The notes under the pieces were generated by a model. It was given only the letters and a program-made list of their open reading frames with translations. It ran no database searches and was not told the origin of the DNA. Positions 6,298-39,589 of a stretch of DNA of 64,000 nt are shown here, one piece after another; positions within the stretch are counted from its first letter, which is position 1; each line of letters begins with the position of its first letter. A program made the translations under genes and the position numbers. Source of the DNA: Candidatus Omnitrophota bacterium (GTDB lineage Bacteria; Omnitrophota; Gorgyraeia; Gygaellales; Profunditerraquicolaceae); NCBI GenBank assembly GCA_028715785.1, contig JAQURC010000003.1:27423-91422 (forward strand), written 5' to 3'.

Positions 6298-8367
6298 CTA
6301 ATCCTTATTAAATTTAAGTTTATAAATACGTATCGTGCTATTTTTAAAAACTGGATTAAATATCTCCGGATGCGCTATTGCCCATTTGTCTTCAATGGGG
6401 AAATCATCGGTTTTCTTTATCAATTCCGAGTAAACAAAAAGAAAATCAATTCTTTTGTTTTTAAGGTTAGCAAGCCAAACATTATAATCTGCATTTCCCC
6501 TATAATTTTCAGGGCTTTCAAAATTCCTAAAAACTTTATTCCCATTATAGCCCCAAATGTATTTAGAATCAGGAAAATAATGAAGCATTGCCGGCTCAAC
6601 TTTATTTATAGAAACATAGTAAACATTATTTTTAAAATTCGTTCCGTACAAGGGAAAACCAACAGGTCTGCCGATATAAGCAATATTATTTCCAGTGGTA
6701 TTATCATTAAGCCAATTCCAAGCTTGGGCGGCATCCGGCCAGAACCCGGAATATTTGACCATCTTTGAATAGCTTGGAAATTCATTTTTAATATAAAACT
6801 TTTCAATAAAAACAAGGCTTAGGAATGTAAGAATACATAAGATGATAATTTTTAATTTAAAATTTTTCTTTAACAGTTTTATTATTGATCCAAAAGTAAA
6901 AAATAGTGTTAAAGATAGAATTAAACCTGCAATAAGCTCGTATTTTTTGGCAAGTTCCGGGATTGAGCCAATTACGCACAAAGCAACCAAAATTTTTAAG
7001 AATAATTTTTGTATTTTAAACGCTTCCGCCGCGTAAAAGAAAATTAATATACCAACAGCAAAAAGCGCATAAATGTAACGGATATTCGGCAAAGGGATAA
7101 CAAATCTAAAGGTTAATATGATCAGAAAAGGCAGAATTAATAAATAATCCATTAATAAGCTATGGGTTTTTCTATTTTTAAAAAGTAGTATTGGGCAAGC
7201 TAACACAATCGCCGGCAAGACAAAAATAAGTGTCTGCCCTCCCAGGCCTTCATGAAATAAGAATTTGGCGATGTTAAAGTCTCCCGGCCTTATGCCTGTG
7301 CGGTAAACCACGCTATCAACTACTCCTCTAAAAATTGTGTGTCCGGCTATTTTTAAGTTCAACGGGTAAAGTGGATTATGGGTCAGGATAAAATTCTTTA
7401 TATAACTAAAACCACCCACAGCCAAAATCGGTAAAAAACAAGCAGTAAGAGCGAACATTTTTTTATAGCCAGTATTTTTTGAGAAACATAAATAAAGTAA
7501 CGGCAATAGCAGTAACAATATAATCGGCATTGCTGTAGTTTTAGTACCAATACTAAGGCCGATAGCTAAAGAGCATAAAATAACATTTCTGACCTTGCCT
7601 TCCTTATTAATCAAGAATAAATAATTTAAGGCGATTAAGAATAAGGCTGCTACGATAATATCGATATAGGCGATTTGCAGCTGTTTGAAATAATTTGGGA
7701 TCAAACTAAACAAAACTGCCGCGTAGAATGAAAACTCTTTTGAAAGGTTGAGTTTTCTGGCTAATGAGACTACCGTGAAAAAAGCGGCAATAAAAAATGG
7801 CAGCTGCCCCAAATCAGCCAAAAATACATTTTTTAGCGGTAATATAAACCAGAGGAAAAATAAACTGCCGTTTACGGGGTAATAAGATACGCTTGGGTCG
7901 CCGGATATGCTTATGGGGTTATCAAGGTTATGGTTTTTAAGCCACTCCACGGGAAAAGTAAAATGGTAATTGAGATCATCCCAGCCAAAAGGCGGATTAA
8001 AAAGGTTAATAATAATTTTTACCAATCCAAACCCCAAGAGCACTGCCAAACAAAGCCGGGTAATGTTGTTAATATTTATACCGGTGTTTTGGAAAATAGC
8101 TGAATTTTTAAGATTAACTTTAGCGAATTTGATAACGCCAAGGCTGATAACGAGTACAAATAAGTTAATTAATATGACGTTGTTTAGCTTAAGTAAACCG
8201 AATACTCCTAATAATTCTAAAGTTATGACAATTTGCGAAAAATAAAGAATGAATATGCCAAGAAAGTAGTCTATCCTATTGCTGATCCTAAACAGATATT
8301 TAGCCAGAATTGCCGCATTTGCCAGAACAATTAAATTCATTAATAGCAGTATGAGCATATTAAACAT
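6298..8367 (-). CDS. Large multi-pass membrane protein with a C-terminal soluble domain; GT-C-type (ArnT/PMT-like) glycosyltransferase candidate
   Basis: About 500 aa of hydrophobic helices followed by about 180 aa hydrophilic. AT-rich gene. Confidence 0.4.
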   Translation of the reverse strand: MFNMLILLLMNLIVLANAAILAKYLFRISNRIDYFLGIFILYFSQIVITLELLGVFGLLKLNNVILINLFVLVISLGVIKFAKVNLKNSAIFQNTGININNITRLCLAVLLGFGLVKIIINLFNPPFGWDDLNYHFTFPVEWLKNHNLDNPISISGDPSVSYYPVNGSLFFLWFILPLKNVFLADLGQLPFFIAAFFTVVSLARKLNLSKEFSFYAAVLFSLIPNYFKQLQIAYIDIIVAALFLIALNYLFLINKEGKVRNVILCSLAIGLSIGTKTTAMPIILLLLLPLLYLCFSKNTGYKKMFALTACFLPILAVGGFSYIKNFILTHNPLYPLNLKIAGHTIFRGVVDSVVYRTGIRPGDFNIAKFLFHEGLGGQTLIFVLPAIVLACPILLFKNRKTHSLLMDYLLILPFLIILTFRFVIPLPNIRYIYALFAVGILIFFYAAEAFKIQKLFLKILVALCVIGSIPELAKKYELIAGLILSLTLFFTFGSIIKLLKKNFKLKIIILCILTFLSLVFIEKFYIKNEFPSYSKMVKYSGFWPDAAQAWNWLNDNTTGNNIAYIGRPVGFPLYGTNFKNNVYYVSINKVEPAMLHYFPDSKYIWGYNGNKVFRNFESPENYRGNADYNVWLANLKNKRIDFLFVYSELIKKTDDFPIEDKWAIAHPEIFNPVFKNSTIRIYKLKFNKD

Positions 8368-9262: not shown

Positions 9263-10975
9263 TTAAATAATTATCCTGCCCTGCCTGTTTTCCAAAAATT
9301 CTTTTTTATACATAGGATTAAAGAATATAAATAAATCATTATATTTATCGTTATATATTTCTTTGAATCCTCTTTCTTTTAACTCAATAATAACCTGATC
9401 AAATCGTTCCTTATCGCTTTCGATTAACTGGCGGTGCAGCACAACATATTTTGTCAGATACCGGCTATCCGGGCTATTTTCCCAGATATAAATATATTTT
9501 CGATGAGTAAGATGCGGGACTAGCCTGTGAACCGCAGAGACTGAGGCACCTTCGGGAATGTTTTTTAAGGCCATCCTTATTTCAGATGAATGCAACTGCT
9601 TTGCTGAATGGATAAACTTGGACAACTTATGGCCGTCGCTTTTGCCAAAGAAAAACAAAGAAAGGAATATAATTATAGCCGCAAGGCAAATTGATACCCT
9701 TTTCTCTATATCTTTAACAGGAAATTTATTCCTTATAAAATTAACCAACCTGCCTGCCCCGCATATTGCTGAAATAAAAATAAACGGCAAGACATGGGCC
9801 GGATAATGGGAAGTTATTGTTGACATACCGGGGTGGTTAATGCTCCCTATGGCCTGAAACGCAATCGGCAATAAAAATAAAACGTAGTGCTGCGGGCTTA
9901 AGAAAGACAGCATTCCCAGCGGAACAAAAAGCTTTGCATAGTATATAAGTTTATCATTAGAAAAAAATAAATTAATTAGTAACGCGGGATTTTTAATTAC
10001 AGCCAAAATATTTTCAGTGTAGGTTGCCCCAAAAGGAAGCCATTTTAAATACGGGTAAACCTTGGTATTGGCAAAATGCGGCATCACGAAATTAGTAACA
10101 AACGCCCACCACGCTATTGCCAAAACCAAAAGAGCTAATCCAAAACGGTAACGTTTAAGACAGATGAATGAAAAAATCCCGTAAGCAAAAACTAATACCG
10201 CCGCGCTCTCTTTGCAACATAGCATTAAAAATATGGCAATAACTGACCAAAAAGTCCGCTTGGTTATAAGCAAATAATAACTAATAAATGCCAGCGGGAT
10301 TAAAAAAACGTCGGTATGGAAATCCAATAATCCTGCGCCCCTTAACGGACGCGAGAGAAAATAGGCGAGAATAAAAGTAAAGACCAGGAACCTGCTTTTT
10401 AACCTCTCCTTTGCGATCAGGTAAAGCGGAAAAACTGCCAATCCCACGGCAAAGGCCTGGAGAAATATCAATATTATAATATTCGGCCAAATAAAGTATA
10501 AAGGCGCGATCAGGAATAAAACCGGCTCAAAATGGGCGCCCAGATGATTGATATTGCCGTCAATTGAGGAAAAAAAGAGCCTCCCTTTTACAGTATTCCA
10601 AATGGCCTGGTCTGTAACCCCCATATCTATCCCCGCGGATGAAAAAGCAAAATGCCGCATTATCCCGATATACAGAAAAATAAAGGCCAAAACCAGGGAT
10701 AAAAACCAAAGGATCTTAACATCTCCGAGCTTAGATATGTATTTCAATGATTTTACAAGCAAAGAGTTATCAAATGAAGCTTTGTCCAGATACCAGCGCG
10801 CGCCTAACAAGAAAATAAAAATTACACTGTGGACCGAAAGATTGGATATCCCCTCTTTGAAAATAAAAACGAAATCGGTTATAAAAAAACTAAGGAGAAA
10901 AACGAAATAGGCCAATAAAAATTGGTCAAGTAAATTGGTTAATATCTTCTTAAATTTATTCATGATGGCGGTCAA
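9263..10975 (-). CDS. Integral membrane protein (DUF2079/GT-C-like), function unknown
   Basis: 570 aa, more than 10 predicted TM helices, within the glycan cluster. Confidence 0.35.
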   Translation of the reverse strand: MTAIMNKFKKILTNLLDQFLLAYFVFLLSFFITDFVFIFKEGISNLSVHSVIFIFLLGARWYLDKASFDNSLLVKSLKYISKLGDVKILWFLSLVLAFIFLYIGIMRHFAFSSAGIDMGVTDQAIWNTVKGRLFFSSIDGNINHLGAHFEPVLFLIAPLYFIWPNIIILIFLQAFAVGLAVFPLYLIAKERLKSRFLVFTFILAYFLSRPLRGAGLLDFHTDVFLIPLAFISYYLLITKRTFWSVIAIFLMLCCKESAAVLVFAYGIFSFICLKRYRFGLALLVLAIAWWAFVTNFVMPHFANTKVYPYLKWLPFGATYTENILAVIKNPALLINLFFSNDKLIYYAKLFVPLGMLSFLSPQHYVLFLLPIAFQAIGSINHPGMSTITSHYPAHVLPFIFISAICGAGRLVNFIRNKFPVKDIEKRVSICLAAIIIFLSLFFFGKSDGHKLSKFIHSAKQLHSSEIRMALKNIPEGASVSAVHRLVPHLTHRKYIYIWENSPDSRYLTKYVVLHRQLIESDKERFDQVIIELKERGFKEIYNDKYNDLFIFFNPMYKKEFLENRQGRIII

Positions 10976-11480
10976 ACTCGCTTTTTTTACCTAAAACAAC
11001 CAGCTTCATCAGGACTATTGCCTTGGAAATAAACAGCATAACCGGGCTGCCTACATAATATCTCCCGTTGCGCAGGACAATCTGGCTGTTATTCATCAAA
11101 CGGTTAATCCTTATATTAATTATCTCTTGCGCATTATACCTCTTAAGTATATCCCCCTTAGTTAAGCCGGCAGGCGCCTCGCCGAGTTCTCTTAGCAGGC
11201 GAATGCGCCGGGCGGTTTCCCCCATATTTATGAAATTGAAATAACAATAGGAAAGACAGAAATAAATAATTAAATTTACGAAAATTAAAAACAACCAATC
11301 TGCCTCCGGCGCCTGATACGCGAGAATTTCGCAAAGTATTAAAACTATTGATCCACATAAAAAACCGAAATATTCGGATTTCAACAGCTTCTTACCAAGT
11401 AAGTATTTATACAAAAATATTTGCGCGGTTACGTTGCTAAAAATTCCTATAACAGGAATGAGGATATTAAAATAATCCAT
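10956..11480 (-). CDS. Small membrane-anchored protein with a C-terminal wHTH-like soluble domain (paralog 1)
   Basis: About 100 aa of TM helices, then ETARRIRLLRELGEAPAGLTKGDILKRYN...IVLRNGRYYVG. Confidence 0.3.
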   Translation of the reverse strand: MDYFNILIPVIGIFSNVTAQIFLYKYLLGKKLLKSEYFGFLCGSIVLILCEILAYQAPEADWLFLIFVNLIIYFCLSYCYFNFINMGETARRIRLLRELGEAPAGLTKGDILKRYNAQEIINIRINRLMNNSQIVLRNGRYYVGSPVMLFISKAIVLMKLVVLGKKSEFDRHHE

Positions 11481-11486
11481 TTCTAA

Positions 11487-11978
11487 TCAGCCCCCCTTGC
11501 CTAATCCCAGGAAATTACGAAAAACTACAAAAGGCAGCACAAAAAGCCTGCCTTTCTCATTAATTCTATATGTCGAACCGCTTAAATCCACCAACCCGGA
11601 CTCCACTAAGTCTTTAAGCCGGGGCTCAATTAATAAATCACTACCCAGAGATTCTCTTATGCGTTCAAAAAGCAACCCTTCTTTACCGGCCCGGGCAATC
11701 CGCGATACAATAACTAAAGAAGGGCTATCGGCCTCGATAGCCGAATAAGTGATCAAATAACAGATGGACAGGGAAAAAAATAACAAAACAATATGCAGAT
11801 ACTGAGGAACTGTATAAAAAGTATATGAAACCAAGAAGATAATGCCAGAAAGGAGGACCGCGCCAAAGAGTAAGATGAGGGTTTTAATCGGATTCCCGGG
11901 ATAGTGCAATCTCCAAACAACCAGATGCAGCAATAAAGCAATAGTAAATAATAAACTCCCTGAAATTAAGACGCTCAT
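11487..11978 (-). CDS. Small membrane-anchored protein with a C-terminal wHTH-like soluble domain (paralog 2)
   Basis: Same architecture as the neighbouring gene: TM N-terminus, then VSRIARAGKEGLLFERIRESLGSDLL...STYRINEKGRLFV. Confidence 0.3.
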   Translation of the reverse strand: MSVLISGSLLFTIALLLHLVVWRLHYPGNPIKTLILLFGAVLLSGIIFLVSYTFYTVPQYLHIVLLFFSLSICYLITYSAIEADSPSLVIVSRIARAGKEGLLFERIRESLGSDLLIEPRLKDLVESGLVDLSGSTYRINEKGRLFVLPFVVFRNFLGLGKGG

Positions 11979-12751
11979 GTACAGGTTTTCTGCTTTCTTG
12001 CTGCCGTAGATGAGTCTGCGGAAAATACTTCATTAGCTTTCAGGCTTTTTGTAAAATAAAAATCCCTGAGCAATCTTAAGTAGCCTTTGGCTACTTTAAA
12101 TAATGAGGGGAATGAAACGGCTTTAGAAATTCCATCCTTACGTAAACCCAGCCTGTAAGGGACCTCGGCAAAAAGATAGCCTTTTTTAACGGTCCTCACA
12201 AGTATATCGGTCTGAAAAAAGAAACCTGTGCTTCTGAAATCAAGCTCTTTAAGCATAGATCTCCTGTAAAGGACTGTGCCGTTGGTATAGTTAAAATTAA
12301 CTAAAAATGTGCTGTTGATAATAAAACGGTAAACAAAAGACAAAATATTCCTGAAGATTGATCTTACCTCCTTATTAAACACAAATGGAATAACAATATC
12401 TACCTGCTCAAGCAGCCTGAAATACCTGAATATTTCCCAGGGATCATTCTCGTTATCCCCGGGCAGGAGCACAATTGAAGCACCATAAGCGTTATCTACC
12501 CCATCCCAAAAAGAAGCCCCTATCCCCTGCGGTTTACTGTGGTTAAGGATGCGCACCCTTTTATCGGACTGCAAAAAATCCTCTACAATCCCCCTTGTCC
12601 TATCCTTGCTGCCGTCGTTAATCACGATTATTTCACCGCTAATACCGCATTCCTCAAATGCATTTAAAGCGTTCTTTATCGCCAAGAGTATATTCTTTTC
12701 TTCGTTCAATGCCGGCATTATTACTGAAACATCTAAAACTTTTTCGACCAT
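11975..12751 (-). CDS. Glycosyltransferase family 2 (DPM1-like)
   Basis: VSVIMPALNEEKNI...IIVINDGSKDRT. Confidence 0.8.
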   Translation of the reverse strand: MVEKVLDVSVIMPALNEEKNILLAIKNALNAFEECGISGEIIVINDGSKDRTRGIVEDFLQSDKRVRILNHSKPQGIGASFWDGVDNAYGASIVLLPGDNENDPWEIFRYFRLLEQVDIVIPFVFNKEVRSIFRNILSFVYRFIINSTFLVNFNYTNGTVLYRRSMLKELDFRSTGFFFQTDILVRTVKKGYLFAEVPYRLGLRKDGISKAVSFPSLFKVAKGYLRLLRDFYFTKSLKANEVFSADSSTAARKQKTCT

Positions 12752-12767
12752 ATAAACCTACCTTAAG

Positions 12768-13931
12768 CTATATGAAATTAACATGAGGAGGTATTTCTTG
12801 ACGCGCCTGTGGAAGCCCCGGTTCTTCTTTTTTCAGCTTCCATAAGAACTCATTGACTTTATGCTGAAGACATAAAGAACCGCACATTTTCCGGGCATCA
12901 AAATTCTCAGAAGCTAAAAGATTGATCACCTCCCAATACCTGTCGCTCTTCCATATTTCCTTAAAAGGCTTCTCGCAGATATTGCCGATATGGTATTTCT
13001 TATATTTTGAGTTAAACAACATGCCGCACGGGGCGACTAGGCCTGAACCGGAAAATTGCATTATAAAGGGCGGGCCGTAACAACGGCTATAAACCCTCTT
13101 GCCGCCGCTGAGTATTTTTGACCATTTTGCCTTTACCAGGTAATTTCCGCAGGAAAGGGATTCCGCTTGTTTAAGTAATTCAACCAGGTCAAAATACTTT
13201 GAATAATTCACCCCCAATTTCCCCTCTTCGTCATCGCTGCAGTGTTTTATAACCGTATAATCAACCCCCAGTTCTTTTCCCAGGCGCGCCAGCGGAATAA
13301 TCTGGTCCGCAAAATGCGGCAAGAGTACCATTTGTAAACCCAAGGTAACTGGTAATTTTTTCTCATTCTTAATCTGCACGGTTTTCTTAATAGTATTAAT
13401 GACTTTTAAGAAATTACTCTCTTTGCATCCCATAATCTCAGCGTATCTTTTAGGTTCGGCAGCCGAAATATTAAACCTGAGATAAGTCAAGGCCGGAAGT
13501 ATTTCTTCAAGCCGCTCATCTTTTAAGAGAAAACCATTTGTCCCTAAAGCCATATCCAAGCCGTTAGATCTGCCTCTCAAGATGGCATCGTATAAATACG
13601 GGGAACAGGTGCTCTCTCCATCGCTAACGAAACTTATCGCTTTCACGCCGATTTGGGCGGCATCATCAAGAAACCTTAAGATCACCTCTTTGGTCATTTT
13701 CTTCTCGTCATTAGCCTGAAGCTGGCCGTAACAGTATACGCATTTATAAGAGCACCTTCTGGTCAATGCGCAATCAATGGTAATCGGGGCTATTCTTTCC
13801 CCGGCCAGCCAGGCTTCCACCCTATCCCTGTGCCAATTCAACTTATGCCCGTCTAATATTAACTCGTTCATTTTATCCTTTATGATTTCTGCCATAGTAA
13901 TATCAAACCCTGATATAACCCGCTCGGTCAT
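12768..13931 (-). CDS. Radical SAM enzyme with C-terminal SPASM/twitch-like Cys cluster
   Basis: CSYKCVYC (CxxxCxxC) near the N-terminus. Cys-rich C-terminus (CGNYL...CYGPPF...CGMLF...CGSLC). Paralog of the rSAM at 15210..16277; both end in HVNFI. Confidence 0.8.
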   Translation of the reverse strand: MTERVISGFDITMAEIIKDKMNELILDGHKLNWHRDRVEAWLAGERIAPITIDCALTRRCSYKCVYCYGQLQANDEKKMTKEVILRFLDDAAQIGVKAISFVSDGESTCSPYLYDAILRGRSNGLDMALGTNGFLLKDERLEEILPALTYLRFNISAAEPKRYAEIMGCKESNFLKVINTIKKTVQIKNEKKLPVTLGLQMVLLPHFADQIIPLARLGKELGVDYTVIKHCSDDEEGKLGVNYSKYFDLVELLKQAESLSCGNYLVKAKWSKILSGGKRVYSRCYGPPFIMQFSGSGLVAPCGMLFNSKYKKYHIGNICEKPFKEIWKSDRYWEVINLLASENFDARKMCGSLCLQHKVNEFLWKLKKEEPGLPQARQEIPPHVNFI

Positions 13932-14394
13932 CGCTTATCCACTCTGCGACCAGCTTGTGAAAAGTCTTCCTGGCTGCGTAAGGGTCATAGGTTCTTAAAT
14001 GAATCAGCTTCATTAAAGCAAGATCATCACCTCCGCAGCAATGCGAAGGCCCAAGAAATTTAAAATAATCATTAACTCCGGTAGAAATGAACTTTACATT
14101 AATTTTTTGTAAAACTACATCATTACGTATTTGCTCTAAAGCCCGGTAAACAAGAAAGTTTACTATCGAATATACTATAGGTATTAAACCGCTCATGCTC
14201 ATTCCCGCAGCTATCCCTACTGTCCCCTGTTCCATAATTCCGCAATTAATAATTCTCTTGGGAAACTCGCTTTTTAATTTGTCGATTGCGCCAAATCCCA
14301 TATCGCAGACAAGAAGATAATAACGTTTATCTTTGCGAAAATACGGCAACAATAAATCTAGAACCTCTTTGCGATAATTACAAACGGCAGGCAT
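13903..14394 (-). CDS. Transketolase C-terminal-section subunit, pyrimidine-binding domain only (truncated, lacks the Transketolase_C domain)
   Basis: LLVCDMGFGAIDK...CGIMEQGTVGIAAGMSMSGLIPIV matches Transket_pyr. 163 aa versus about 310 aa for a typical subunit. Confidence 0.7.
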   Translation of the reverse strand: MPAVCNYRKEVLDLLLPYFRKDKRYYLLVCDMGFGAIDKLKSEFPKRIINCGIMEQGTVGIAAGMSMSGLIPIVYSIVNFLVYRALEQIRNDVVLQKINVKFISTGVNDYFKFLGPSHCCGGDDLALMKLIHLRTYDPYAARKTFHKLVAEWISDDRAGYIRV

Positions 14395-15208
14395 AGGTCC
14401 TCCCTAATTTCAGCTCTTCGGGCGTCGGCGTGCGGAAATGAAACTTTGGTATATTCTCCATGCACTTAAGCCCGAATCCTTTTATTGTCTCGGCAATAAT
14501 TACACGAGGCACTTTTAAAGAAGTTTTAACTACGGGCCTTATAAACCGGGCAAGCTTAGCGGCATCATGGCCGTTACAAACAACGGGCGCCAGCCCAAAA
14601 CCTTTTAGTTTCTTAAGCTTATCCTTAACATCCCTGTCAAGGACATTAATAATAAAATCCATCGCCTGCAAACGATTGTTATCAATAATAATGGTGAGGT
14701 TGCTGACCTCATGCTTAACCGCGAATTGGATCGCCTCCCAAGTTGTGCCTTCCTGCATCTCCCCATCCCCTATAACGCAAAAGGTATGGAAAATTTTCTT
14801 TTGTAATTTCGCGCCGAATGCCTCTCCTACCGCGATAGGTAAACCATGCCCCAAAGAACCGCATCCTGCCTCAAAACCATAATCCAAACGGTAGTCCATG
14901 CATCCCAAAAGAGTGCTGCCGGGAGCGTAAAAACGCTTCCATTCTTTTTTAAGCAATACCTCTTTATCGGCAAGGATCGCATAAAGGGCGTAACAACCGT
15001 GCGCCTTAGAGAAAATAAACCTGTCTCTCTTATCCCAGCGGGGATTAACCGGATGATAACGCATAACACTATAATAAAGTGCAACAAGGATATCTACGCA
15101 GGAAAGCGACGGGGCAATATGCCCTGCGCCATTTTTAACAGCCACCTCGATTACTTCGTGGCGGATTTGATCGGCTTTTCTTTGCAACGCTTTTCCTGTA
15201 AGATACAT
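14378..15208 (-). CDS. Transketolase N-terminal (TPP-binding) subunit
   Basis: GHIAPSLSCVDILVALYY...DRFIFSKAHG...GSLGHGLPIAVG...VIGDGEMQEG matches TPP-binding transketolase motifs. Confidence 0.8.
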   Translation of the reverse strand: MYLTGKALQRKADQIRHEVIEVAVKNGAGHIAPSLSCVDILVALYYSVMRYHPVNPRWDKRDRFIFSKAHGCYALYAILADKEVLLKKEWKRFYAPGSTLLGCMDYRLDYGFEAGCGSLGHGLPIAVGEAFGAKLQKKIFHTFCVIGDGEMQEGTTWEAIQFAVKHEVSNLTIIIDNNRLQAMDFIINVLDRDVKDKLKKLKGFGLAPVVCNGHDAAKLARFIRPVVKTSLKVPRVIIAETIKGFGLKCMENIPKFHFRTPTPEELKLGRTYACRL

Positions 15209-15209
15209 A

Positions 15210-16277
15210 TTAGATAAAATTAACGTGCGCCGAAGGATGAGTCAGATCCCAAAGATACCTGTTAACCTCATCCATCCTGCAATTCACCCTGCATTTGGCG
15301 GTATTTAACCCCTTTGCCGCCCAACGCACGAGATTATCGCGTTTCTTGCTTTCCCAAATTTCCTTGAAGCTGTTTTTGTAAATATTCCCCAGGCAAAACT
15401 TATTTTTGGTTAAATACATACTGCACGCCCAGACATTCCCTCCGGCGTCAATATACGCCCAGAAAGGAAGCGCCAAACAGTGCTTATAATTACGCTCCGC
15501 CTTATCCCACTTCTGCATTGTGTGTACCCGGAATACGACATTAAAATTTTCACTATTGATCTTATTTAGCTTAGAAGCTAAATCAAAGTACTTATTGTAT
15601 TTAATATCTTTAAATTTGTCGGTCTTGCTTAATGGATGCTGCGAATAGGGTTTCACTACCAGGTAATCCATTCCAATAGACTTAGCCTGCTTAGCTAATA
15701 ATTCTATTTCGCTGTAATTATCCGGCAAAAGGATGGCTTGCATGCCCAGGGTGCAAGGGTATCCCTTTTTCCTGCGTAATTTGGCGGCATACGCCATATT
15801 CTTTATAACTTTATGGAAATCCTCCGGCTTGGTCCTATGAATTTTTGCGTAAGTAACAGGCCTGGCGGCATTAATACTTACCTTAACCCAGGTTAAATAT
15901 GGCAGAGTTGCGGTAGAAATCTTTTCGCTGAACAAAACGGCATTTGAGGTTACAGCAACATCAATACCGGATTTCTTGGTAGTGGCAATTATATCCGCGA
16001 TATCCTTATGCAAAAATGGTTCTCCCTCTCCGGCGTACATAATACTTTTCACCCCAAGCTTACCCATTTCCCTTAACCTTTGCTTAAAAATACTCGTATC
16101 CAGAAACCTGGGCTGATATTCCATAAAATCCAGAGCGCAATATACACAACGGTGGTTACAGGAACCGGCAGGTGATATCTCCATATAAACAGGATAAATA
16201 GGCTTGCCCTTAATCCAATCACCGACCCTTTCAACATGATACATTAGCTTGTGGCTGTCTATTTTATACTTATCCAT
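15210..16277 (-). CDS. Radical SAM enzyme with C-terminal SPASM/twitch-like Cys cluster (paralog)
   Basis: CNHRCVYC CxxxCxxC motif. C-terminal Cys cluster. Ends in HVNFI like the 12768..13931 protein. Confidence 0.8.
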   Translation of the reverse strand: MDKYKIDSHKLMYHVERVGDWIKGKPIYPVYMEISPAGSCNHRCVYCALDFMEYQPRFLDTSIFKQRLREMGKLGVKSIMYAGEGEPFLHKDIADIIATTKKSGIDVAVTSNAVLFSEKISTATLPYLTWVKVSINAARPVTYAKIHRTKPEDFHKVIKNMAYAAKLRRKKGYPCTLGMQAILLPDNYSEIELLAKQAKSIGMDYLVVKPYSQHPLSKTDKFKDIKYNKYFDLASKLNKINSENFNVVFRVHTMQKWDKAERNYKHCLALPFWAYIDAGGNVWACSMYLTKNKFCLGNIYKNSFKEIWESKKRDNLVRWAAKGLNTAKCRVNCRMDEVNRYLWDLTHPSAHVNFI

Positions 16278-16282
16278 TTCGT

Positions 16283-16843
16283 TTATCTTTTATAAAGGAT
16301 ATCCACTAATGCGTGGCAAATCGCCAGGTGGGCAATTTCAACAGCTCCGTAAGATGAAGAAGGCGCGTAGAAATTTACATCCCCCATGCTTCTCAAAGGA
16401 TTCCGGTTGGAAAAACCAGAGAGGCCTATAACAAAACAGCCTTTCTTTTTGGCGCTGGATGCCGCGTTTAAAATATTTTTTGATTTTCCCGAACTGCTTA
16501 TGGCAAAAAGGATATCCCCTTTTTTAGCAAGGACATCTATGGGCACAGAAAAAACACGCTCATAGCCCAAATCATTGCTCAGGCAGGTAAGCAAACTGCT
16601 ATCGTTAAATGCCAGGGAGGGAATTCTTAAATTCTTAAGGAAATCCGTGGCGATATGGCTGGCGATCGAAGCGCTCCCGCCATTACCGATAAAGATTATC
16701 TTTTTCCTCTTTTTGCTTTGCCGGGATATAAGTTTGATGACCTGAAAAATAGCCTTATGAAAATCGAGCGCCCTACGGCTAGAATCCGTCGTTTCTATAT
16801 TTGATAATAAATTGGTTAATTCCAAAAACTGGTTATTTTTCAT
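16283..16843 (-). CDS. gmhA: D-sedoheptulose-7-phosphate isomerase (phosphoheptose isomerase, SIS domain)
   Basis: IIFIGNGGSASIASHIATDF...AISSSGKSKNIL SIS/GmhA motifs. 186 aa. Confidence 0.8.
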   Translation of the reverse strand: MKNNQFLELTNLLSNIETTDSSRRALDFHKAIFQVIKLISRQSKKRKKIIFIGNGGSASIASHIATDFLKNLRIPSLAFNDSSLLTCLSNDLGYERVFSVPIDVLAKKGDILFAISSSGKSKNILNAASSAKKKGCFVIGLSGFSNRNPLRSMGDVNFYAPSSSYGAVEIAHLAICHALVDILYKR

Positions 16844-18375
16844 TTTAAAAGAGTAGTGATGTATTTAAATAAAGGCACCGGTTCAACCGGAGAACGGTTG
16901 CCCACGATTAGCACTTTAATCGCCCCCACCGCATTACCGATAAAACCTACTGTCTCCATGGGGTTCTTTTTGCATACGCATGGCGCAGCAACCGAGAAAA
17001 ACGCGTCCCCCGCCCCTATCCTGTCGACCACATCCTTGGAGAAAACCGGGATCTGGTTAAAACCATCTTTGGCAGAATAAACCAGGGAACCTTTATGCCC
17101 CCTGGTAATAATTATCTTATCGCAGTTAATTTTCTTGCTCACGTCCGTAATTAAGTGCTCGATGTTGGAAATTTTATCATGGCAGGCAAGCCTTAGCTCC
17201 GGCTCGTCAATACAGATAAAATCCGCGCGGTGAAGCTTCGTAATAAGATTGTAGCCAAGATTAGCGCTGTTGGTCTGCACATTTACCGCCAGAAATTTTG
17301 CTTCTTCGCTAAGCAGTTTAATAATTTTAGGAGTAATCATTCCATGCCCAAAATCCGTGACTAAAACAAGGTCAAAATGCTTAAGTGAACCCTGCAAATA
17401 ATCGATAATTTCACTTTCTATGTCTTTGGGCATAATAGAGATATCATCAAGATAGCAGACTTCAAAAAGTTTTGTCAAAAATGCTGGATCCACAAATCTG
17501 CGCTTAACTACTGTTGGAACATCATCGCGATAGTAAAAATTTTGTTTTATGTTAGATTTAAGGTGGCTGGCAACAAAATCTCCGTAATTATTCTTTCGGC
17601 CTACGCAGCTAAGCAGAGTAACATCCTTACAAAAACCCGCGATATGATTAGCCGCTGCCAATACTCCTCCGGCAAAAACCTCCGCATTGGAGAATTTGGT
17701 AGCGATAATATTGTCCTTGGCTGACTTTCCCATCCCCGAACAATAATGGTACTCATCAATAATAATGTCACCGATAACCAAGACCTTTAAATTTTCCAGG
17801 GCTTTGAGCCGGCTGATGATATCGGCGGCGGAATATTTCTTTTTAAAAACATGGAAGAATTCCTTGGCCTCCTGAGGATATGGAGAAAGAAAGGTATTGA
17901 TCAGAGAGGTAGAGCTAAAAGATACTTCATCAGTAAAATGGATCAAGCCCCCTATTGACTTAACCGCCTCCTCTTCTTCATAGATCTTCCCGGTAAGGTC
18001 ATTGGAACGGTCAGCGTAATCGCTGCCTTTAACATAAAAATGCGGCTTAAGTATCTTAATTGTCTCAATCGCAGTCGGCCAATCATTGATCGCCACATAA
18101 TCCACGCATTCTAAAGCCGCGATACTATCGGCGCGCAAATGATGGTTAAAAACAGGCCGGCCCGGGCCTTTATTGACATACTCATCTTTTGTTAAAGTAA
18201 CCACAAGCACATCCCCTTTTTTCTTGGCTGCCTGAAAATGTTTCAGGTGCCCGGGATGCAAAAGGTCGAAGCAGCCGTGGCAATGCGCTATTTTCTTACC
18301 GTTTTTTCTTAAATCTTCAAGAATAAAGGCGAGCTCTTTTATTGTTTTTATTTTGGTTTGAGGATCTCTTTTCAT
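16840..18375 (-). CDS. hldE: Bifunctional heptose 1-phosphate adenylyltransferase (N-terminal) / heptose 7-phosphate kinase (C-terminal); HldE-like but with domain order inverted relative to canonical HldE
   Basis: N-terminal CHGCFDLLHPGH cytidylyltransferase-fold motif as in RfaE domain II. C-terminal PfkB kinase with GAGDAF. Confidence 0.75.
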   Translation of the reverse strand: MKRDPQTKIKTIKELAFILEDLRKNGKKIAHCHGCFDLLHPGHLKHFQAAKKKGDVLVVTLTKDEYVNKGPGRPVFNHHLRADSIAALECVDYVAINDWPTAIETIKILKPHFYVKGSDYADRSNDLTGKIYEEEEAVKSIGGLIHFTDEVSFSSTSLINTFLSPYPQEAKEFFHVFKKKYSAADIISRLKALENLKVLVIGDIIIDEYHYCSGMGKSAKDNIIATKFSNAEVFAGGVLAAANHIAGFCKDVTLLSCVGRKNNYGDFVASHLKSNIKQNFYYRDDVPTVVKRRFVDPAFLTKLFEVCYLDDISIMPKDIESEIIDYLQGSLKHFDLVLVTDFGHGMITPKIIKLLSEEAKFLAVNVQTNSANLGYNLITKLHRADFICIDEPELRLACHDKISNIEHLITDVSKKINCDKIIITRGHKGSLVYSAKDGFNQIPVFSKDVVDRIGAGDAFFSVAAPCVCKKNPMETVGFIGNAVGAIKVLIVGNRSPVEPVPLFKYITTLLK

Positions 18376-19361
18376 TTTGATAGATATCTAAACCAATCTT
18401 TGGTAGCTGTTTCTATTTTTTCAGGGGTCCATACCGGCGCGGCCCGCCAATACTCGATATTATCAAGAATGGATTTTACCCCCTGCTCAAAACTAACCTT
18501 AGGACTCCATCTTAAAAGTTTTTTGATTTTTGCAGTATCCGCGAATGTGCAGTCCGGCTCACCCGGCCTTTTGGGAATATACACTACTTCACCCTTAAGA
18601 AGCTCAACCAAACGGTTAACGCTATAAGTATTCCCTGAGCCGACATTCATCACTTCTTGCTGACAATTTGAATTGGCAGCCATAAAAAAAGCATTGGCCA
18701 CATCAGTAACGAACACAAAATCGCGCGTCTGCGTACCGTCTCCTACTACTGTAAATGGCTTATTATTCAGCTTCTGCGCCAAAAATACTCCAAATACCGC
18801 GCCATAAGTTCCGGATGTCCTTGAGCGCGGGCCGTAAACATTAAAAAGCCTTAATGATACTACCGGTAATTTATATACCTGGCCCCAATGTAAAACCAAT
18901 TGTTCGCCCAAATACTTAGTTAACGCGTAAGGATACTGCGGCCTTGTTTCTGCGGTCTCTTGAGTAGGATATCCATCCGGTATTCCATAACACGAAGATG
19001 ACGCCGCATAAACAAGCTTTTTTACACCGGATAAACGCGCAGCTTCAACTACGCTAAAAGTTCCATCAACATTTGACTTATAATAATCCAAAGGATTGAC
19101 GATTGAAGGAACGATATCCGCCAACGCAGCTAGATGAAAAACATGATCGATCCCCTTAAAATATGGAAGGATTTCGTCAAAGGAAAATATATCAACCTTT
19201 ACTATATTAAGATTCTCATTATTCCTATGGTGGCTAAGATTCTCCAGCCTGCCGGTAGAAAAGTTATCCAGGACAACTACAGAATAACCTTCTTCAATTA
19301 ATTTATCAACCAAATGGCTGGCGATAAACCCTGCACCACCGGTTACTAATGCTTTTTTCAT
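18372..19361 (-). CDS. NAD-dependent sugar-nucleotide epimerase/dehydratase (SDR)
   Basis: [14 protein letters not shown] Rossmann motif. YALTK catalytic YxxxK. Confidence 0.8.
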   Translation of the reverse strand: MKKALVTGGAGFIASHLVDKLIEEGYSVVVLDNFSTGRLENLSHHRNNENLNIVKVDIFSFDEILPYFKGIDHVFHLAALADIVPSIVNPLDYYKSNVDGTFSVVEAARLSGVKKLVYAASSSCYGIPDGYPTQETAETRPQYPYALTKYLGEQLVLHWGQVYKLPVVSLRLFNVYGPRSRTSGTYGAVFGVFLAQKLNNKPFTVVGDGTQTRDFVFVTDVANAFFMAANSNCQQEVMNVGSGNTYSVNRLVELLKGEVVYIPKRPGEPDCTFADTAKIKKLLRWSPKVSFEQGVKSILDNIEYWRAAPVWTPEKIETATKDWFRYLSK

Positions 19362-31937: not shown

Positions 31938-33455
31938 CTATCGCTGCCTTTTTAACAGTCTTTCAATAACGCGTTTTAATAAACCGTAAGTTTTGTTTAT
32001 CTGCAACAAAAATAATTCCCGAAAATAAATTTTATAACGACTGGATTTTCTATAAAATGCATGGTGCGTTACAAACCAATATAGAGAATCAAGGTATTCT
32101 CCTAGAATCATGTACCTAAATCGGACCTTAACGTAGAGAAGCCCCATATTTTTCTTATGTTTAGCCAGTTTAAAACGCGGGTCTGTTATTTCCTGATAAG
32201 ACCTTCTTTGGCCTGAAATTTCATATTCATCCTTTTTAAGCCGAGGAATAACATATTTATCATATAATTCGGTTCCCAGGAGAGGTACGGTAACTGCAAA
32301 AGAATATTTAGTAGCTTTTATAGAATTTGCCAGGCGAAAAGTTGCTGCGAGATCTTCTTCTTGTTCTGTAGGAGTATTTATCAAAAAATTCGCCAAAGAT
32401 CTAAGGCTGTATTTTTTACAAATTTGAAACGCCTGTTTTATTTTTTTAATAGTTGCGCCCTTTTTCATTTCCTTAAGAATACGCTCAGAACCCGATTCAA
32501 CACCAAACTCAACTTGGATGCAGCCGGCTTCTTTCATGTTTTTTGCCATATTCTCTGAAAATGTATTAACATGGCTCTGGCATCCCCATACCAATCTCAG
32601 ATCTCTATCTTTTAATAAGTTGCTAAATTCAATGACTCTTCGGTCGTTTAAAGTAAACATGTCATCTTCAATTGAAAAACCATCAATCTTAAATTTATTT
32701 TTTAAATAGGCTATTTCCTTAACAACTACTTCCGCAGGGCGTGAACGTATGCGGGAAGTATAGCTATTTGCCGAAACTAATGAATTATTCCCACAAAAAG
32801 TACAATTGAATGGACAGCCTCTGGTTGTTTGAATGCCTATTCCGGAAATAAAAATATTGCGGATTAGATCTGTGCGGGGCTGCAAATAATAAGTTAGATC
32901 TAATAAATGATACGGGGGCAATGAAAAGAAATCCAAATTTTCTAATAACTGCCTCGGTTTTGTCTTATGTAATTCGCCATCTCTATAAAATGCCAACCCA
33001 TCAATCTTATCAACTTCCGCTTTACTTTCTATCGCATTTAAAAGTTCATAAAGAGTCTGTTCTCCTTCGCCTAATACAACATAATCAAATATGTTTTTTT
33101 CCTCTAGGAAATCTTTTGGGCAAAAAGTAGGATGATGCCCGCCAGCGATGATAAAACCTTTGTATCCCCTTGCTCTTAACTGCTGCGCCATTCTATATAC
33201 GCAGCCAAACTCAGCAGTAAGACAAGTAAAACCAATGGAAACTGTTGGCTTTACCAGCAATTTGTCAACTATATAATTTTCCGCTTCTATTAATGAAACA
33301 TTGGGAATATTTAGATATTTAACGTCGAGAATCTCGCATTTTTTCCCCTTATCTTCCAGGTATGCAGCAAGCGAAAGGATTGAAAAAGGAATATTGCGAG
33401 AAGAAAGCCTGGTAGGAGGATTAACCAGAATTATATCGAGTTCATTATTATTCAT
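31938..33455 (-). CDS. B12-binding domain radical SAM enzyme (class B rSAM, methyltransferase-like)
   Basis: N-terminal cobalamin-binding-like region (ILVNPP...), then TTRGCPFNCTFC CxxxCxxC. Confidence 0.8.
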   Translation of the reverse strand: MNNNELDIILVNPPTRLSSRNIPFSILSLAAYLEDKGKKCEILDVKYLNIPNVSLIEAENYIVDKLLVKPTVSIGFTCLTAEFGCVYRMAQQLRARGYKGFIIAGGHHPTFCPKDFLEEKNIFDYVVLGEGEQTLYELLNAIESKAEVDKIDGLAFYRDGELHKTKPRQLLENLDFFSLPPYHLLDLTYYLQPRTDLIRNIFISGIGIQTTRGCPFNCTFCGNNSLVSANSYTSRIRSRPAEVVVKEIAYLKNKFKIDGFSIEDDMFTLNDRRVIEFSNLLKDRDLRLVWGCQSHVNTFSENMAKNMKEAGCIQVEFGVESGSERILKEMKKGATIKKIKQAFQICKKYSLRSLANFLINTPTEQEEDLAATFRLANSIKATKYSFAVTVPLLGTELYDKYVIPRLKKDEYEISGQRRSYQEITDPRFKLAKHKKNMGLLYVKVRFRYMILGEYLDSLYWFVTHHAFYRKSSRYKIYFRELFLLQINKTYGLLKRVIERLLKRQR

Positions 33456-38410: not shown

Positions 38411-39589
38411 TTAAATAACCGACAAGAACTCTTTTAGATTATACGCCCGGGCAGTTTTAGTAAGAGGAAAAGATTTATCGATAAGCGAGATAACACAACC
38501 GTTTAGTATAGACAATTTTTTGCTTTTGCGCAGATTGCGCAGCCGTTCTATCGAATTAATCATGCTGGAATTGGGCGTTTTAGTTAATTTGATCTCACAA
38601 GGCCTAATCACACCCGCCTTTTCTTCAATAATTATATCTATTTCCAGCCCGTTGTTTGTCCGGTAATAGTAAAGAGGCGGCGTTAATCCGAGGTTAAAAT
38701 AATGTTTTAATAGTTCCTGGATCACAAAATTCTCGAAAATAGCCCCTGCCTGCGCGCCGCGCGTAAGAGCAATTTTTGATTTATTGCCGATTAAATAATT
38801 TACTAATCCGATGTCGGTAAAATATACTTTTGGAGATTTTACAATACGGCTGCCTAAATTAAGATGATATGGCCTAAGCAGAAATATAACCTGGGATACT
38901 TCAAGGATGCTTACCCATAATTTCACCGCTTGAATCGATACGCCCAAATCATTAGAAAGAGACTGATAATTTAAGGCCTGGGATGAGCGGGCAGCTAAAA
39001 GAAAGAGCAGGTCGCGGAAATGGGTTATTTTCTCCAGCCGATAAAAAGGCTGCACGTCTTTCTCTAAATATGTGGATACATAAGATCCAAACCAGCGCTG
39101 CGAATCATGGTTTGGCCTTAACATTAACTCTGGATATGAACCATTAATACCGCGGAAAGAATAGTTCTGCGTGGCGCTTTTTGCCTCAGTAATAGCCATG
39201 GGCAAAAGATGAAAAATCGCCGCCCTACCCGCCAAACTCTCTCGGAGATTATGGATCATCGTAAATTGCTGCGAACCGGTGAGTATAAACCGCCCTCTTC
39301 TCCCTGATTCATCCGCCCTTATCTTAATATACGGCAGAAGCTGCGGGGCATATTGAATTTCGTCTATGATTAACGGCTCTTTATACTCATCAAAAAATAG
39401 CTCCGGATCCTCCTGGGCGAGCTTTAAATCGCGCGGATTATCTAAAGAAACATAGCGGTGCGTCTTTTGGAAAAGATGCGCAAGAAGCGTAGACTTTCCC
39501 GTCTGGCGCATCCCGGTCAAAACTAAAACGCGGAATTGGAGAGCGGCTTTCTTAAGGACACCTTCTATATTTCGCCTGTAATACTTCAT
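38411..39589 (-). CDS. AAA+ ATPase (AAA_14 plus DUF4143 architecture)
   Basis: Walker A LTGMRQTGKST. Size and C-terminal region typical of the DUF4143 ATPase family. Confidence 0.65.
   Translation of the reverse strand: MKYYRRNIEGVLKKAALQFRVLVLTGMRQTGKSTLLAHLFQKTHRYVSLDNPRDLKLAQEDPELFFDEYKEPLIIDEIQYAPQLLPYIKIRADESGRRGRFILTGSQQFTMIHNLRESLAGRAAIFHLLPMAITEAKSATQNYSFRGINGSYPELMLRPNHDSQRWFGSYVSTYLEKDVQPFYRLEKITHFRDLLFLLAARSSQALNYQSLSNDLGVSIQAVKLWVSILEVSQVIFLLRPYHLNLGSRIVKSPKVYFTDIGLVNYLIGNKSKIALTRGAQAGAIFENFVIQELLKHYFNLGLTPPLYYYRTNNGLEIDIIIEEKAGVIRPCEIKLTKTPNSSMINSIERLRNLRKSKKLSILNGCVISLIDKSFPLTKTARAYNLKEFLSVI

Follow-up and report, generated by a model that had tools for sequence, protein, structure and literature searches.

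A widespread gene cassette that joins radical SAM and thiamine diphosphate-dependent enzymes to probable heptose-type sugar activation

We analysed a 64,000-nucleotide stretch of a metagenome-assembled Candidatus Omnitrophota bacterium genome (contig JAQURC010000003.1, positions 27,423 to 91,422 of the forward strand; "the window" below, with positions counted from its first letter) and found on its minus strand a cassette in which two radical S-adenosylmethionine (rSAM) proteins, rSAM-A and rSAM-B, stand among genes for a split transketolase (TK)-like, thiamine diphosphate (ThDP)-dependent enzyme, for heptose-type sugar activation and for glycosyl transfer. The cassette, of seven to ten genes, is common to hundreds of anaerobic bacteria and archaea, and its parts are of known kinds, newly combined. 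We propose, as a possible if tentative reading, that it is a new way to branched or C9-type heptose derivatives, in which an rSAM enzyme would make a carbonyl with neither oxygen nor NAD and a ThDP enzyme would add two carbons to it, and that it has spread horizontally among lineages that include Omnitrophota, the candidate phyla radiation (CPR), anammox bacteria, Nitrospirota, Elusimicrobia, Methanoperedens and DPANN archaea.

A first-pass annotation of this DNA, made from the sequence alone, had already proposed a dedicated, undescribed module of modified-heptose type. Open reading frame (ORF) calls and Pfam searches recovered every gene that it listed, at its place on the minus strand and in one tight operon. 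The idea of a dedicated module is borne out by conserved synteny, and literature searches that combined rSAM with TK, heptose or related sugar topics found no published description of the cassette.

RESULTS

rSAM-B and a ThDP enzyme form the core of a widespread cassette

When genomes were scanned with an alignment of rSAM-B, relatives turned up in at least 504 species-level genomes from more than 12 phyla, and a library search returned 469 clusters at 50% identity with E < 1e-30. The best 80 relatives were 55 to 88% identical. Their bacterial carriers were Omnitrophota, anammox and other Planctomycetota, Nitrospirota, Nitrospinota, Elusimicrobia, Thermodesulfobacteriota/Deltaproteobacteria, Firestonebacteria, Auribacterota, Lentisphaeria, Fibrobacter and Hydrogenedentota, and their archaeal carriers were Methanoperedens BLZ2, Hydrothermarchaeota and Nanoarchaeia. 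For synteny, the ORFs of 86 loci were compared with the proteins of the window. The recurrent order, with variable members in brackets, was (short-chain dehydrogenase/reductase, SDR)-(stand-alone nucleotidyltransferase, NT)-kinase/NT-SIS-rSAM-B-ThDP enzyme, followed by (family 2 glycosyltransferase, GT2)-(second rSAM)-(AP_endonuc_2)-(two small membrane proteins). The high similarity of the rSAM proteins across phyla, together with their varied flanks, points to horizontal spread.

The ThDP gene lay no more than 6 kb downstream of rSAM-B in 62 of the 66 non-redundant loci with enough downstream sequence, and no more than 400 nt downstream in 39; in two of the four exceptions, it lay upstream of rSAM-B instead. 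We concluded that rSAM-B and the ThDP enzyme are the tightest link in the cassette and that their clustering is far from chance. The slot after rSAM-B was held by enzymes of three classes, which were TK-like in 34 loci, like the alpha and beta subunits of pyruvate dehydrogenase (PDH) E1 in 24 and acetolactate synthase (ALS)-like in 4. On the PDH E1-beta model, a beta subunit of the PDH-E1-like kind exceeded the cut-off with 344 bits. A minimal form in deltaproteobacteria reads rSAM-B-E1alpha-E1beta-GT2-B12-binding rSAM (B12-rSAM)-GT9-small rSAM.

Gene fusions tie rSAM-B to both the sugar-activation and the ThDP steps. Members of the rSAM-B family were fused to a SIS domain (P0246), to cytidylyltransferase-like domains (P0267, P0268 and P0278), to a methyltransferase (P0273) and, in P0279, to a complete ALS-like ThDP enzyme. 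In a further homologue, P0290 (631 aa), an intein that carries an HNH endonuclease is inserted in the sequence.

One carrier is in culture. Solidesulfovibrio carbinolicus DSM 3852 holds on its 133-kb plasmid pDCAR1 (locus L087, NZ_CP026539.1, 67846-96907) a kinase/NT gene, a GSU2086-family protein, a SIS gene and an rSAM-B (C3Y92_RS20620; 54% identity). Beside this core lie a full-length split TK, two B12-rSAMs and the pseudaminic-acid genes pseB, pseF and a NeuB-like gene. All of these carry no more than generic annotations, and the region may be a flagellin or surface glycosylation island.

The two rSAM proteins are paralogues with one auxiliary cluster

As the first-pass annotation had held, rSAM-A and rSAM-B are paralogues, with 30% identity over their full length (E = 1e-55) and a shared HVNFI terminus. 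The deposited gene model of rSAM-A (P0121) begins at M13 and spans 12768-13895 (375 aa), where a start at 13931 gives 387 aa. With the M13 start, rSAM-A abuts rather than overlaps the gene for the TK C subunit; the reading frames around the TK genes are as tightly packed as had been described, with abutment replacing overlap at this junction.

Both proteins belong to the radical SAM superfamily by their Pfam Radical_SAM scores (61 to 62 bits). Across the rSAM-B family C40, C44 and C47 (CX3CX2C) and a GEGEP motif are invariant; in rSAM-A the invariant cysteines are C48, C52 and C55, and the counterpart of the SAM-binding motif is SDGES. A joint alignment showed exactly four further conserved cysteines in both families, arranged as CX17C (containing GX4C) and then CX3C, and the families share an N-terminal D(G/S)HKL..H..RV..W signature and a C-terminal HxNF(I/V). 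The seven-cysteine SPASM motif (CX9-15GX4C...CX2CX5CX3C...C) is absent from both, although Pfam SPASM scores above its cut-off. Four extra cysteines correspond to one auxiliary cluster, which makes the domain Twitch-like (or a truncated SPASM). The earlier rSAM/SPASM label thus stands as far as radical SAM and the Pfam hit go, and a full SPASM domain was rejected.

None of the NCBIfam models came near its cut-off on either protein, the best being a tungsten-cofactor maturase (88 to 89 bits against 380). The AlphaFold model of rSAM-B (pLDDT 94.8) had DesII among its closest solved structures by Foldseek (E = 2.7e-18), and DesII was also the best PDB sequence match of both rSAM-A and rSAM-B. BlsE and DesII are the solved structures nearest to the rSAMs, and these proteins do not group with peptide maturases, a grouping that would have spoken against the first-pass annotation. 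SkfB and SuiB are also close structural neighbours, however, and the margin of DesII and BlsE over maturases of ribosomally synthesized and post-translationally modified peptides (RiPPs) is small, so that the modelled fold serves as supporting evidence only.

rSAM-A was present in only 28 of 60 loci, and elsewhere the second rSAM can be a protein of 288 or 356 aa; the bracketing of the TK genes by two paralogous rSAMs, to which attention had been drawn in the window, is therefore not a general feature. Where it occurs, rSAM-A is 76 to 80% identical across Omnitrophota, CPR, Nitrospirota, Brocadia and Auribacterota. Between the window and a Brocadia locus (L005), the kinase/NT proteins are 46% and the GT2 proteins 49% identical, far below the conservation of rSAM-A.

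The TK-like pair keeps its catalytic residues and has lost its phosphate- and acceptor-binding residues

The gene for the N subunit starts 1 nt after the rSAM-B stop codon. Its product scored 96.6 bits on Pfam Transketolase_N and 203 bits on the NCBIfam transketolase model, and its nearest PDB match was the split TK 6yak (E = 3.8e-49). The reduction of the C subunit to its pyrimidine-binding (Pyr) domain, noted earlier, was confirmed, since its 163 aa match Transket_pyr only. A short C subunit of 163 to 225 aa recurs in 23 loci; the window copy lacks the Transketolase_C domain.

We aligned the window pair and 37 related pairs with Escherichia coli TktA. The equivalents of H26, H66, D155, N185, H261, E411 and H473 were retained in all 38 pairs, whereas those of S385, H461, D469 and R520 were lost in all 38: S385 is replaced by Gly or Ile, H461 by Gly and D469 by Leu or Gln, and R520 is absent or replaced by Thr or Lys, with Arg in one pair. 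In the window C subunit the first three are Gly, Gly and Leu, and R520 is absent, states that do not vary among pairs of the short-C type; pairs of the full-length type have lost the four residues as well. In TktA, S385, H461 and R520 bind the phosphate and D469 the C2-hydroxyl. The canonical split TK of Carboxydothermus (6yaj), by contrast, retains H461 and D469. Set against EC 2.2.1.1, the ThDP/Mg-binding and catalytic residues are thus present, and the phosphate and acceptor residues and the three-domain architecture are missing. Loss of these four residues with the catalytic ones kept is what a bulky acceptor without phosphate would fit.

All 23 short-C-type orthologues, like the window pair, have Cys at the position of H100. 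In the yeast and E. coli enzymes H100 contacts the C1-hydroxyl of the donor, and its replacement removes this contact, which is compatible with, and no proof of, a pyruvate donor as in DXS. The first-pass annotation had the TK supply sedoheptulose-7-phosphate (S7P) directly to the isomerase. That part of its scheme does not hold up well: judged from these residues, the pair is unlikely to be an S7P supplier, and we rejected a housekeeping or S7P-supplying transketolase because of the active-site residues and because PDH-E1-like or ALS-like enzymes take its place in 28 loci.

The sugar activation genes point to a heptose or a close analogue

The 511-aa kinase/NT protein carries its nucleotidyltransferase domain (CTP_transf_like) at aa 33-158 (17902-18279) and its PfkB kinase domain at aa 197-496 (16888-17787), which confirms the reverse of the canonical HldE order. 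Its best NCBIfam matches were rfaE_dom_II (107.6 bits) and rfaE_dom_I (107.9 bits), both below their cut-offs, and it scored 155 bits on the HldE equivalog model against a cut-off of 521. Its PDB matches were the heptose-7-phosphate kinase 4e84 and cytidylyltransferases, and the motifs HPGH, SFSSTS and GAGD are all intact. In 38 of 62 loci an orthologue preceded rSAM-B at a distance of no more than 4.5 kb.

The SIS protein matched exclusively phosphoheptose isomerases among its best PDB matches (1x94, E = 1.9e-24), and its best NCBIfam match was gmhA (106 bits against a cut-off of 209). It retains the equivalents of GmhA H61 and H180 and the SSGKS loop. The equivalent of the catalytic E65 is Asp and that of Q172 is Glu, each in 41 of 41 orthologues from the module. 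The earlier gmhA and hldE assignments are therefore right as to the nearest relatives, and the scores, well below the equivalog cut-offs, make the proteins GmhA-like and HldE-like.

The SDR gene overlaps the kinase/NT gene by 4 nt, and in 21 of 62 loci an orthologue with at least 55% identity immediately precedes the kinase gene. The protein scored 205.7 bits on Pfam Epimerase, its top NCBIfam models were GalE, LegB and RmlB, all below cut-off, and an HldD-type heptose epimerase model gave 116.8 bits. On our reading of the sequence, its ...AASSSCYG... motif lacks the Asp-Glu pair of 4,6-dehydratases. The GT9 gene that the first-pass annotation had placed downstream is indeed a Glyco_transf_9 member (94.6 bits against a cut-off of 22), with a donor specificity that is predicted at most. 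GT9 genes also adjoin the cassette in L003/L004 and L067, with a weak blastp match (25%) in L039.

Three archaeal loci, in Methanoperedens BLZ2 (L051, 5178-7347) and in two other archaeal metagenome-assembled genomes (L047 and L049), carry a GmhB 42 to 44% identical to that of E. coli, together with a transaldolase, directly upstream of the cassette. In two of these loci, L051 and L047, the next gene encodes a GSU2086-family protein and immediately precedes the genes for the stand-alone NT, kinase/NT, SIS and rSAM-B. The classical route from central metabolites is thus complete there, in organisms that have no lipopolysaccharide, and a heptose substrate is supported. From these comparisons we consider it likely that the sugar made in the window is a heptose or a close analogue.

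In loci with the 162-aa stand-alone NT (for example L005, 1707-2195), the second His of the HxGH motif in the fused NT domain is changed to Ile or Val. The stand-alone protein would compensate for the degenerate domain, an apparent replacement of a domain by a gene, and its presence where the fused domain is degenerate fits an active pathway. The GSU2086-family protein (NF052581), found in 21 loci, accompanies most of the loci with a stand-alone NT. AP_endonuc_2 proteins occur in some loci and give only a weak match to the CbiR phosphodiesterase (41.6 bits, where the cut-off is 105); such a protein could possibly act as the phosphatase in place of GmhB, although the window has no gene for one. 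In four loci the cassette adjoins TylC3-like C-methyltransferases, enzymes whose substrates are nucleoside diphosphate (NDP)-keto sugars, and these suggest keto-sugar intermediates.

A GT2 enzyme and membrane proteins follow the cassette

The solved structures nearest to the GT2 protein were GtrB (5ekp), DPMS (5mlz) and ArnC (E = 1e-9 to 1e-11), and its NCBIfam matches AglJ, ArnC and PpgS were all below cut-off. GT2 genes lay no more than 8 kb from rSAM-B in 34 of 60 loci. The genes for the small membrane proteins TM1 and TM2 recur with GT2 in at least seven other loci: they follow it in L002, L007, L011, L037, L044 and L059, and they lie nearby in L035. Searches of Pfam and NCBIfam found no family match for TM1. 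TM1 and TM2, each of about 170 aa, are predicted to span the membrane with three transmembrane (TM) helices; both end in a winged-helix-like part and are without a family match. The arrangement of a GT2 enzyme free of TM helices with TM1 and TM2 recalls DPM1/DPM2/DPM3.

An orthologue of the DUF2079 protein, 75% identical, follows TM2 in L007, and orthologues of the 689-aa membrane protein (33% identity) follow TM1/TM2 in L002 and L011. The 689-aa protein scored 21.5 bits on Pfam GT-C_AftD and 19.5 bits on PMT_2, both below cut-off, and PDB sequence searches with it and with the DUF2079 protein found no match. We regard the DUF2079 protein as a candidate periplasmic transferase that would use a lipid-linked sugar. 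The run of small and large membrane proteins after GT2 suggests a hand-over to polyprenyl phosphate, which is the weakest part of our model.

The cassette lies in a large surface-glycan locus

All of the window genes between about 1.2 and 44.6 kb were called on the minus strand, and this block of about 43 kb makes up one very large surface-glycan locus (Table 1). It encodes an initiating phosphoglycosyl transferase, a WecG-type transferase, three Wzy_C proteins, a flippase, many GT2, GT4 and GT9 enzymes, several SDR and nucleotidyltransferase proteins, a B12-rSAM and methyltransferases. Within it the cassette is transcribed in the order SDR, kinase/NT, SIS, rSAM-B, TK N-type subunit, Pyr-only subunit, rSAM-A and GT2. 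Its junctions are overlaps of 4 to 17 nt or gaps of 1 to 16 nt, as a single operon would have.

The B12-rSAM of the window is a 505-aa protein (31938-33455). In other genomes (L002, L003, L067, L087 and L051) the cassette likewise has B12-rSAMs and TylC3-like C-methyltransferases beside it, which suggests heavily C-methylated sugars. Blocks with a GC content of 0.32 to 0.36 at 6 to 10 kb and 28 to 34 kb suggest that the glycan locus is a mosaic assembled horizontally. An IS200-like (Y1_Tnp) transposase gene (44943-45629) stands at its upstream edge, with housekeeping genes beyond, and a DUF4143/AAA_14 ATPase gene of insertion-like appearance (38411-39589) stands among the nucleotide-sugar genes. 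At the downstream end, 602-1195 encodes a small protein with an AbiEi-antitoxin-like or PaaX-like winged-helix N terminus.

Table 1. The cassette and associated genes in the window, in order of transcription
Feature	Coordinates	Strand	Basis
SDR-family NDP-sugar epimerase-type enzyme, 329 aa; first gene of the cassette	18372..19361	-	Pfam Epimerase
Reverse-order HldE-like kinase/NT, 511 aa	16840..18375	-	Pfam CTP_transf_like + PfkB
GmhA-like SIS-domain sugar-phosphate isomerase, 186 aa; distinct subfamily	16283..16843	-	Pfam SIS
rSAM-B, 355 aa; Twitch-like domain with a single auxiliary cluster; invariant centre of the cassette	15210..16277	-	Pfam Radical_SAM + SPASM
ThDP-binding (PP-domain) subunit of non-canonical split TK-like enzyme, 276 aa	14378..15208	-	Pfam Transketolase_N
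Pyr-domain-only TK-like subunit, 163 aa	13903..14394	-	Pfam Transket_pyr only
rSAM-A, 375 aa; paralogue of rSAM-B; putative, optional second tailoring enzyme	12768..13895	-	Pfam Radical_SAM + SPASM
GT2 glycosyltransferase, 258 aa; probably a polyprenyl-phosphate sugar synthase	11975..12751	-	Pfam Glycos_transf_2
TM1, small membrane protein, 163 aa; putative partner of GT2	11487..11978	-	Synteny
TM2, small membrane protein, 174 aa; paralogue-like	10956..11480	-	Sequence inspection
DUF2079 polytopic membrane protein, 570 aa	9263..10975	-	Pfam DUF2079, 231 bits
Large membrane protein, 689 aa; weak GT-C-like matches	6298..8367	-	Pfam, below cut-off
GT9 (heptosyltransferase-family) glycosyltransferase, 321 aa	1226..2191	-	Pfam Glyco_transf_9

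DISCUSSION

A proposed pathway

According to a 2025 review, exactly three classes of ThDP enzyme attach two-carbon branches to keto sugars, or are proposed to do so: YerE-like decarboxylases of the ALS type, alpha-KADH2 enzymes (AviB1/B2 and KbDH) and the split-gene TKs of miharamycin and amipurimycin biosynthesis (PMC12247030); AviB1/B2, Pau11/12 and YerE have been described (PMC4425429). The split TKs proposed to accept ketones have so far been reported only from Streptomyces, and none has been characterised (PMC12247030). Since the same three classes are interchangeable beside rSAM-B, the simplest reading of the cassette is the addition of a two-carbon acyl anion to the carbonyl of an activated sugar, and the E1-like and ALS-like variants indicate pyruvate as the donor. 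In known pathways the ketone comes from NAD-dependent 4,6-dehydratases and the like; the minimal cassette lacks these. A radical dehydrogenation or 1,2-elimination in the manner of DesII, BtrN or AprD4 would supply the ketone anaerobically.

We therefore propose the following pathway, in which, as homology suggests, the GmhA-like isomerase and the reverse-order HldE-like enzyme would make a nucleotide-activated heptose from S7P or a close analogue, a step that would require a GmhB phosphatase encoded elsewhere. rSAM-B would then take a hydrogen atom from this sugar and yield, through either dehydrogenation or 1,2-elimination, a keto or a deoxy-keto/aldehyde sugar. To its carbonyl the TK-like pair would add a two-carbon acyl-anion unit, in the short-C type perhaps drawn from pyruvate, as in DXS, or transferred as a glycolaldehyde unit, to give a C-branched or chain-extended heptose; rSAM-B may supply the carbonyl or may process the ThDP adduct. 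rSAM-A would carry out a second radical tailoring step, and GT2, possibly with the two small membrane proteins, would transfer the product to a polyprenyl phosphate carrier, from which membrane glycosyltransferases or GT9 would place the sugar in the surface glycan of the 43-kb locus. Taken as a whole, from NDP-heptose through the rSAM carbonyl, the ThDP addition and the second rSAM step to transfer by GT2, we give this model a little less than an even chance.

Several points weigh against it. The entire chemistry is read from gene content, motifs, synteny and fold neighbours, and the data do not constrain the order of the rSAM and ThDP steps. The ThDP enzyme could be a decarboxylase or a lyase instead of a carboligase. 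The minimal deltaproteobacterial form has no SIS or kinase/NT genes nearby, and the substrate is therefore not necessarily a heptose in every case. In the SIS protein Asp replaces the catalytic Glu of GmhA, and the family scores all fall below the NCBIfam cut-offs. A search for GmhB in the window found none, so that the module is not self-contained as the first-pass annotation had supposed. Finally, the 258-aa GT2 protein has no evident TM segment, unlike GtrB, ArnC and DPMS.

In one alternative, the scheme of the first-pass annotation, the split TK would make S7P for GmhA, the module would be self-sufficient, and the rSAMs would act on completed nucleotide-heptose by redox or epimerisation reactions, independently of the TK. 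The N subunit has true transketolases as its best matches, the cofactor-binding and catalytic residues are intact, GmhA-like and HldE-like genes adjoin the pair, and the archaeal transaldolase and GmhB that accompany the module show that precursor supply is evidently an issue there. We nevertheless think this explanation improbable, because the residues that bind phosphate and the C2-hydroxyl are missing in 38 of 38 pairs whereas the canonical split TK has H461 and D469, because the short-C type has in addition exchanged H100 for Cys and lost the entire C-terminal domain, and because the slot is held at 28 loci by PDH-E1-like or ALS-like enzymes, which are unable to make S7P. Moreover, the ThDP gene tracks rSAM-B and not SIS, as the minimal variant and the ALS-rSAM-B fusion illustrate. 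The minimal variant, rSAM-B-E1alpha-E1beta-GT2 with no SIS, kinase or nucleotidyltransferase gene, speaks rather for a different alternative, in which the ThDP enzyme and rSAM-B act away from the nucleotide sugar, by making a small acyl or ketol group from pyruvate or by working on a polyprenyl-phosphate-linked sugar once GT2 has transferred it, and the heptose genes are no more than frequent neighbours. The Arn pathway and DprE1/DprE2 are known cases of tailoring on lipid-linked sugars, and the GT2 gene, frequent at 34 of 60 loci, encodes a protein that resembles polyprenyl-phosphate glycosyltransferases. The fusions of rSAM-B to SIS and cytidylyltransferase-like domains, the kinase/NT gene upstream of it in 38 of 62 loci and the nearest structures, which act on nucleoside- or nucleotide-bearing sugars, make this rather unlikely.

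Decarboxylation of a 2-oxo acid is the first half-reaction in all three ThDP classes, and the enzyme might accordingly cleave or decarboxylate an alpha-keto-acid sugar or a ketose, so that the carbon skeleton would be shortened or rearranged and not extended. Of the two nearest structures, BlsE is that of a decarboxylase, and the S. carbinolicus module adjoins the ulosonic-acid genes NeuB-like, pseB and pseF. Such genes are absent from the core of the window and from most loci, however, and the documented roles of the three ThDP classes in sugar pathways are all carboligations (PMC12247030), and we judge cleavage to have a poor chance of being right. We give hardly any credence to the proposal that the two rSAMs are peptide maturases of the SPASM type, acting on a RiPP precursor whose gene lies elsewhere. 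It draws on the Pfam SPASM hits and on the closeness of SkfB and SuiB in structure, but just four extra cysteines are conserved, the NCBIfam maturase scores are all far below cut-off, and the abutting genes of the operon leave no room for a precursor (no search aimed at an RRE domain was made). The synteny with sugar genes is also kept in more than 60 genomes, and the family is fused to sugar-pathway and ThDP domains; on family scores, fusions, synteny and cysteine count we rejected the peptide-maturase reading. C2 addition to an activated heptose remains our preferred reading.

Should this be true, the cassette would be the first example in which the making of a sugar links radical SAM chemistry with thiamine-dependent carboligation, and an anaerobic alternative to dehydratase-based routes to branched sugars. 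It would give a function to two large unannotated rSAM families, rSAM-A and rSAM-B. It would also imply an undescribed class of surface sugar in largely uncultured lineages, among them Omnitrophota, CPR, anammox bacteria and ANME-2d archaea, whose envelopes have hardly been studied. The truncated TK with its remodelled pocket is of interest as a biocatalyst, and the plasmid pDCAR1 of the cultured S. carbinolicus DSM 3852 makes the question experimentally tractable. An article entitled "Sugar Lego" mentions transketolases only generically (PMC5702140), and a preprint on the glycoproteomics of anammox S layers reports oligo-heptose chains and nothing attributable to the cassette. The "232" ion of that preprint has an even nominal mass and is probably nitrogen-containing; our guess is a dimethyl-HexNAc, not a C2-extended heptose.

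Comparison with known systems

In its last genes, the cassette is like GtrA/B/C, ArnC/E/F/T and DPM1/2/3, in that a short GT2 is followed by two small and then large polytopic membrane proteins. It is a resemblance only, since the GT2 has no TM helices, unlike in those systems, and the small proteins match no flippase family. The activation genes resemble the ADP-L-glycero-D-manno-heptose pathway (GmhA, HldE, GmhB and HldD) in their SIS protein, their PfkB and cytidylyltransferase-like domains with HxGH and GAGD motifs intact, their SDR and GT9 proteins and the GmhB beside the cassette in three archaeal loci. They differ from it in the reversed domain order, in scores below equivalog level, in the Asp found at the position of the GmhA Glu in 41 of 41 orthologues, in the lack of a GmhB found in the window and in being joined to rSAM and ThDP enzymes.

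DesII, a TDP-4-amino-4,6-dideoxyglucose deaminase/dehydrogenase, and BlsE, a cytosylglucuronate decarboxylase, are both rSAM enzymes that act on activated sugars, as we propose for rSAM-B, and BtrN and AprD4 are alike by mechanism. rSAM-A and rSAM-B differ from DesII and BlsE in having just 15 to 16% identity to them and signatures of their own (DxHKL..H..RV..W and HxNFI), and no family model covers them. The known ThDP systems for C-branching (YerE, AviB1/AviB2, Pau11/12, KbDH and the split TKs of miharamycin and amipurimycin) use NDP-hexose 4,6-dehydratases or related enzymes and have no rSAM partner, and the cassette TK, with a C subunit reduced to the Pyr domain and with Cys in place of H100, is unlike the known split TKs, which were reported only from Streptomyces. 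What the cassette shares with these systems, a likeness at the level of enzyme class, is the use of the same three ThDP classes, here in a single slot beside rSAM-B.

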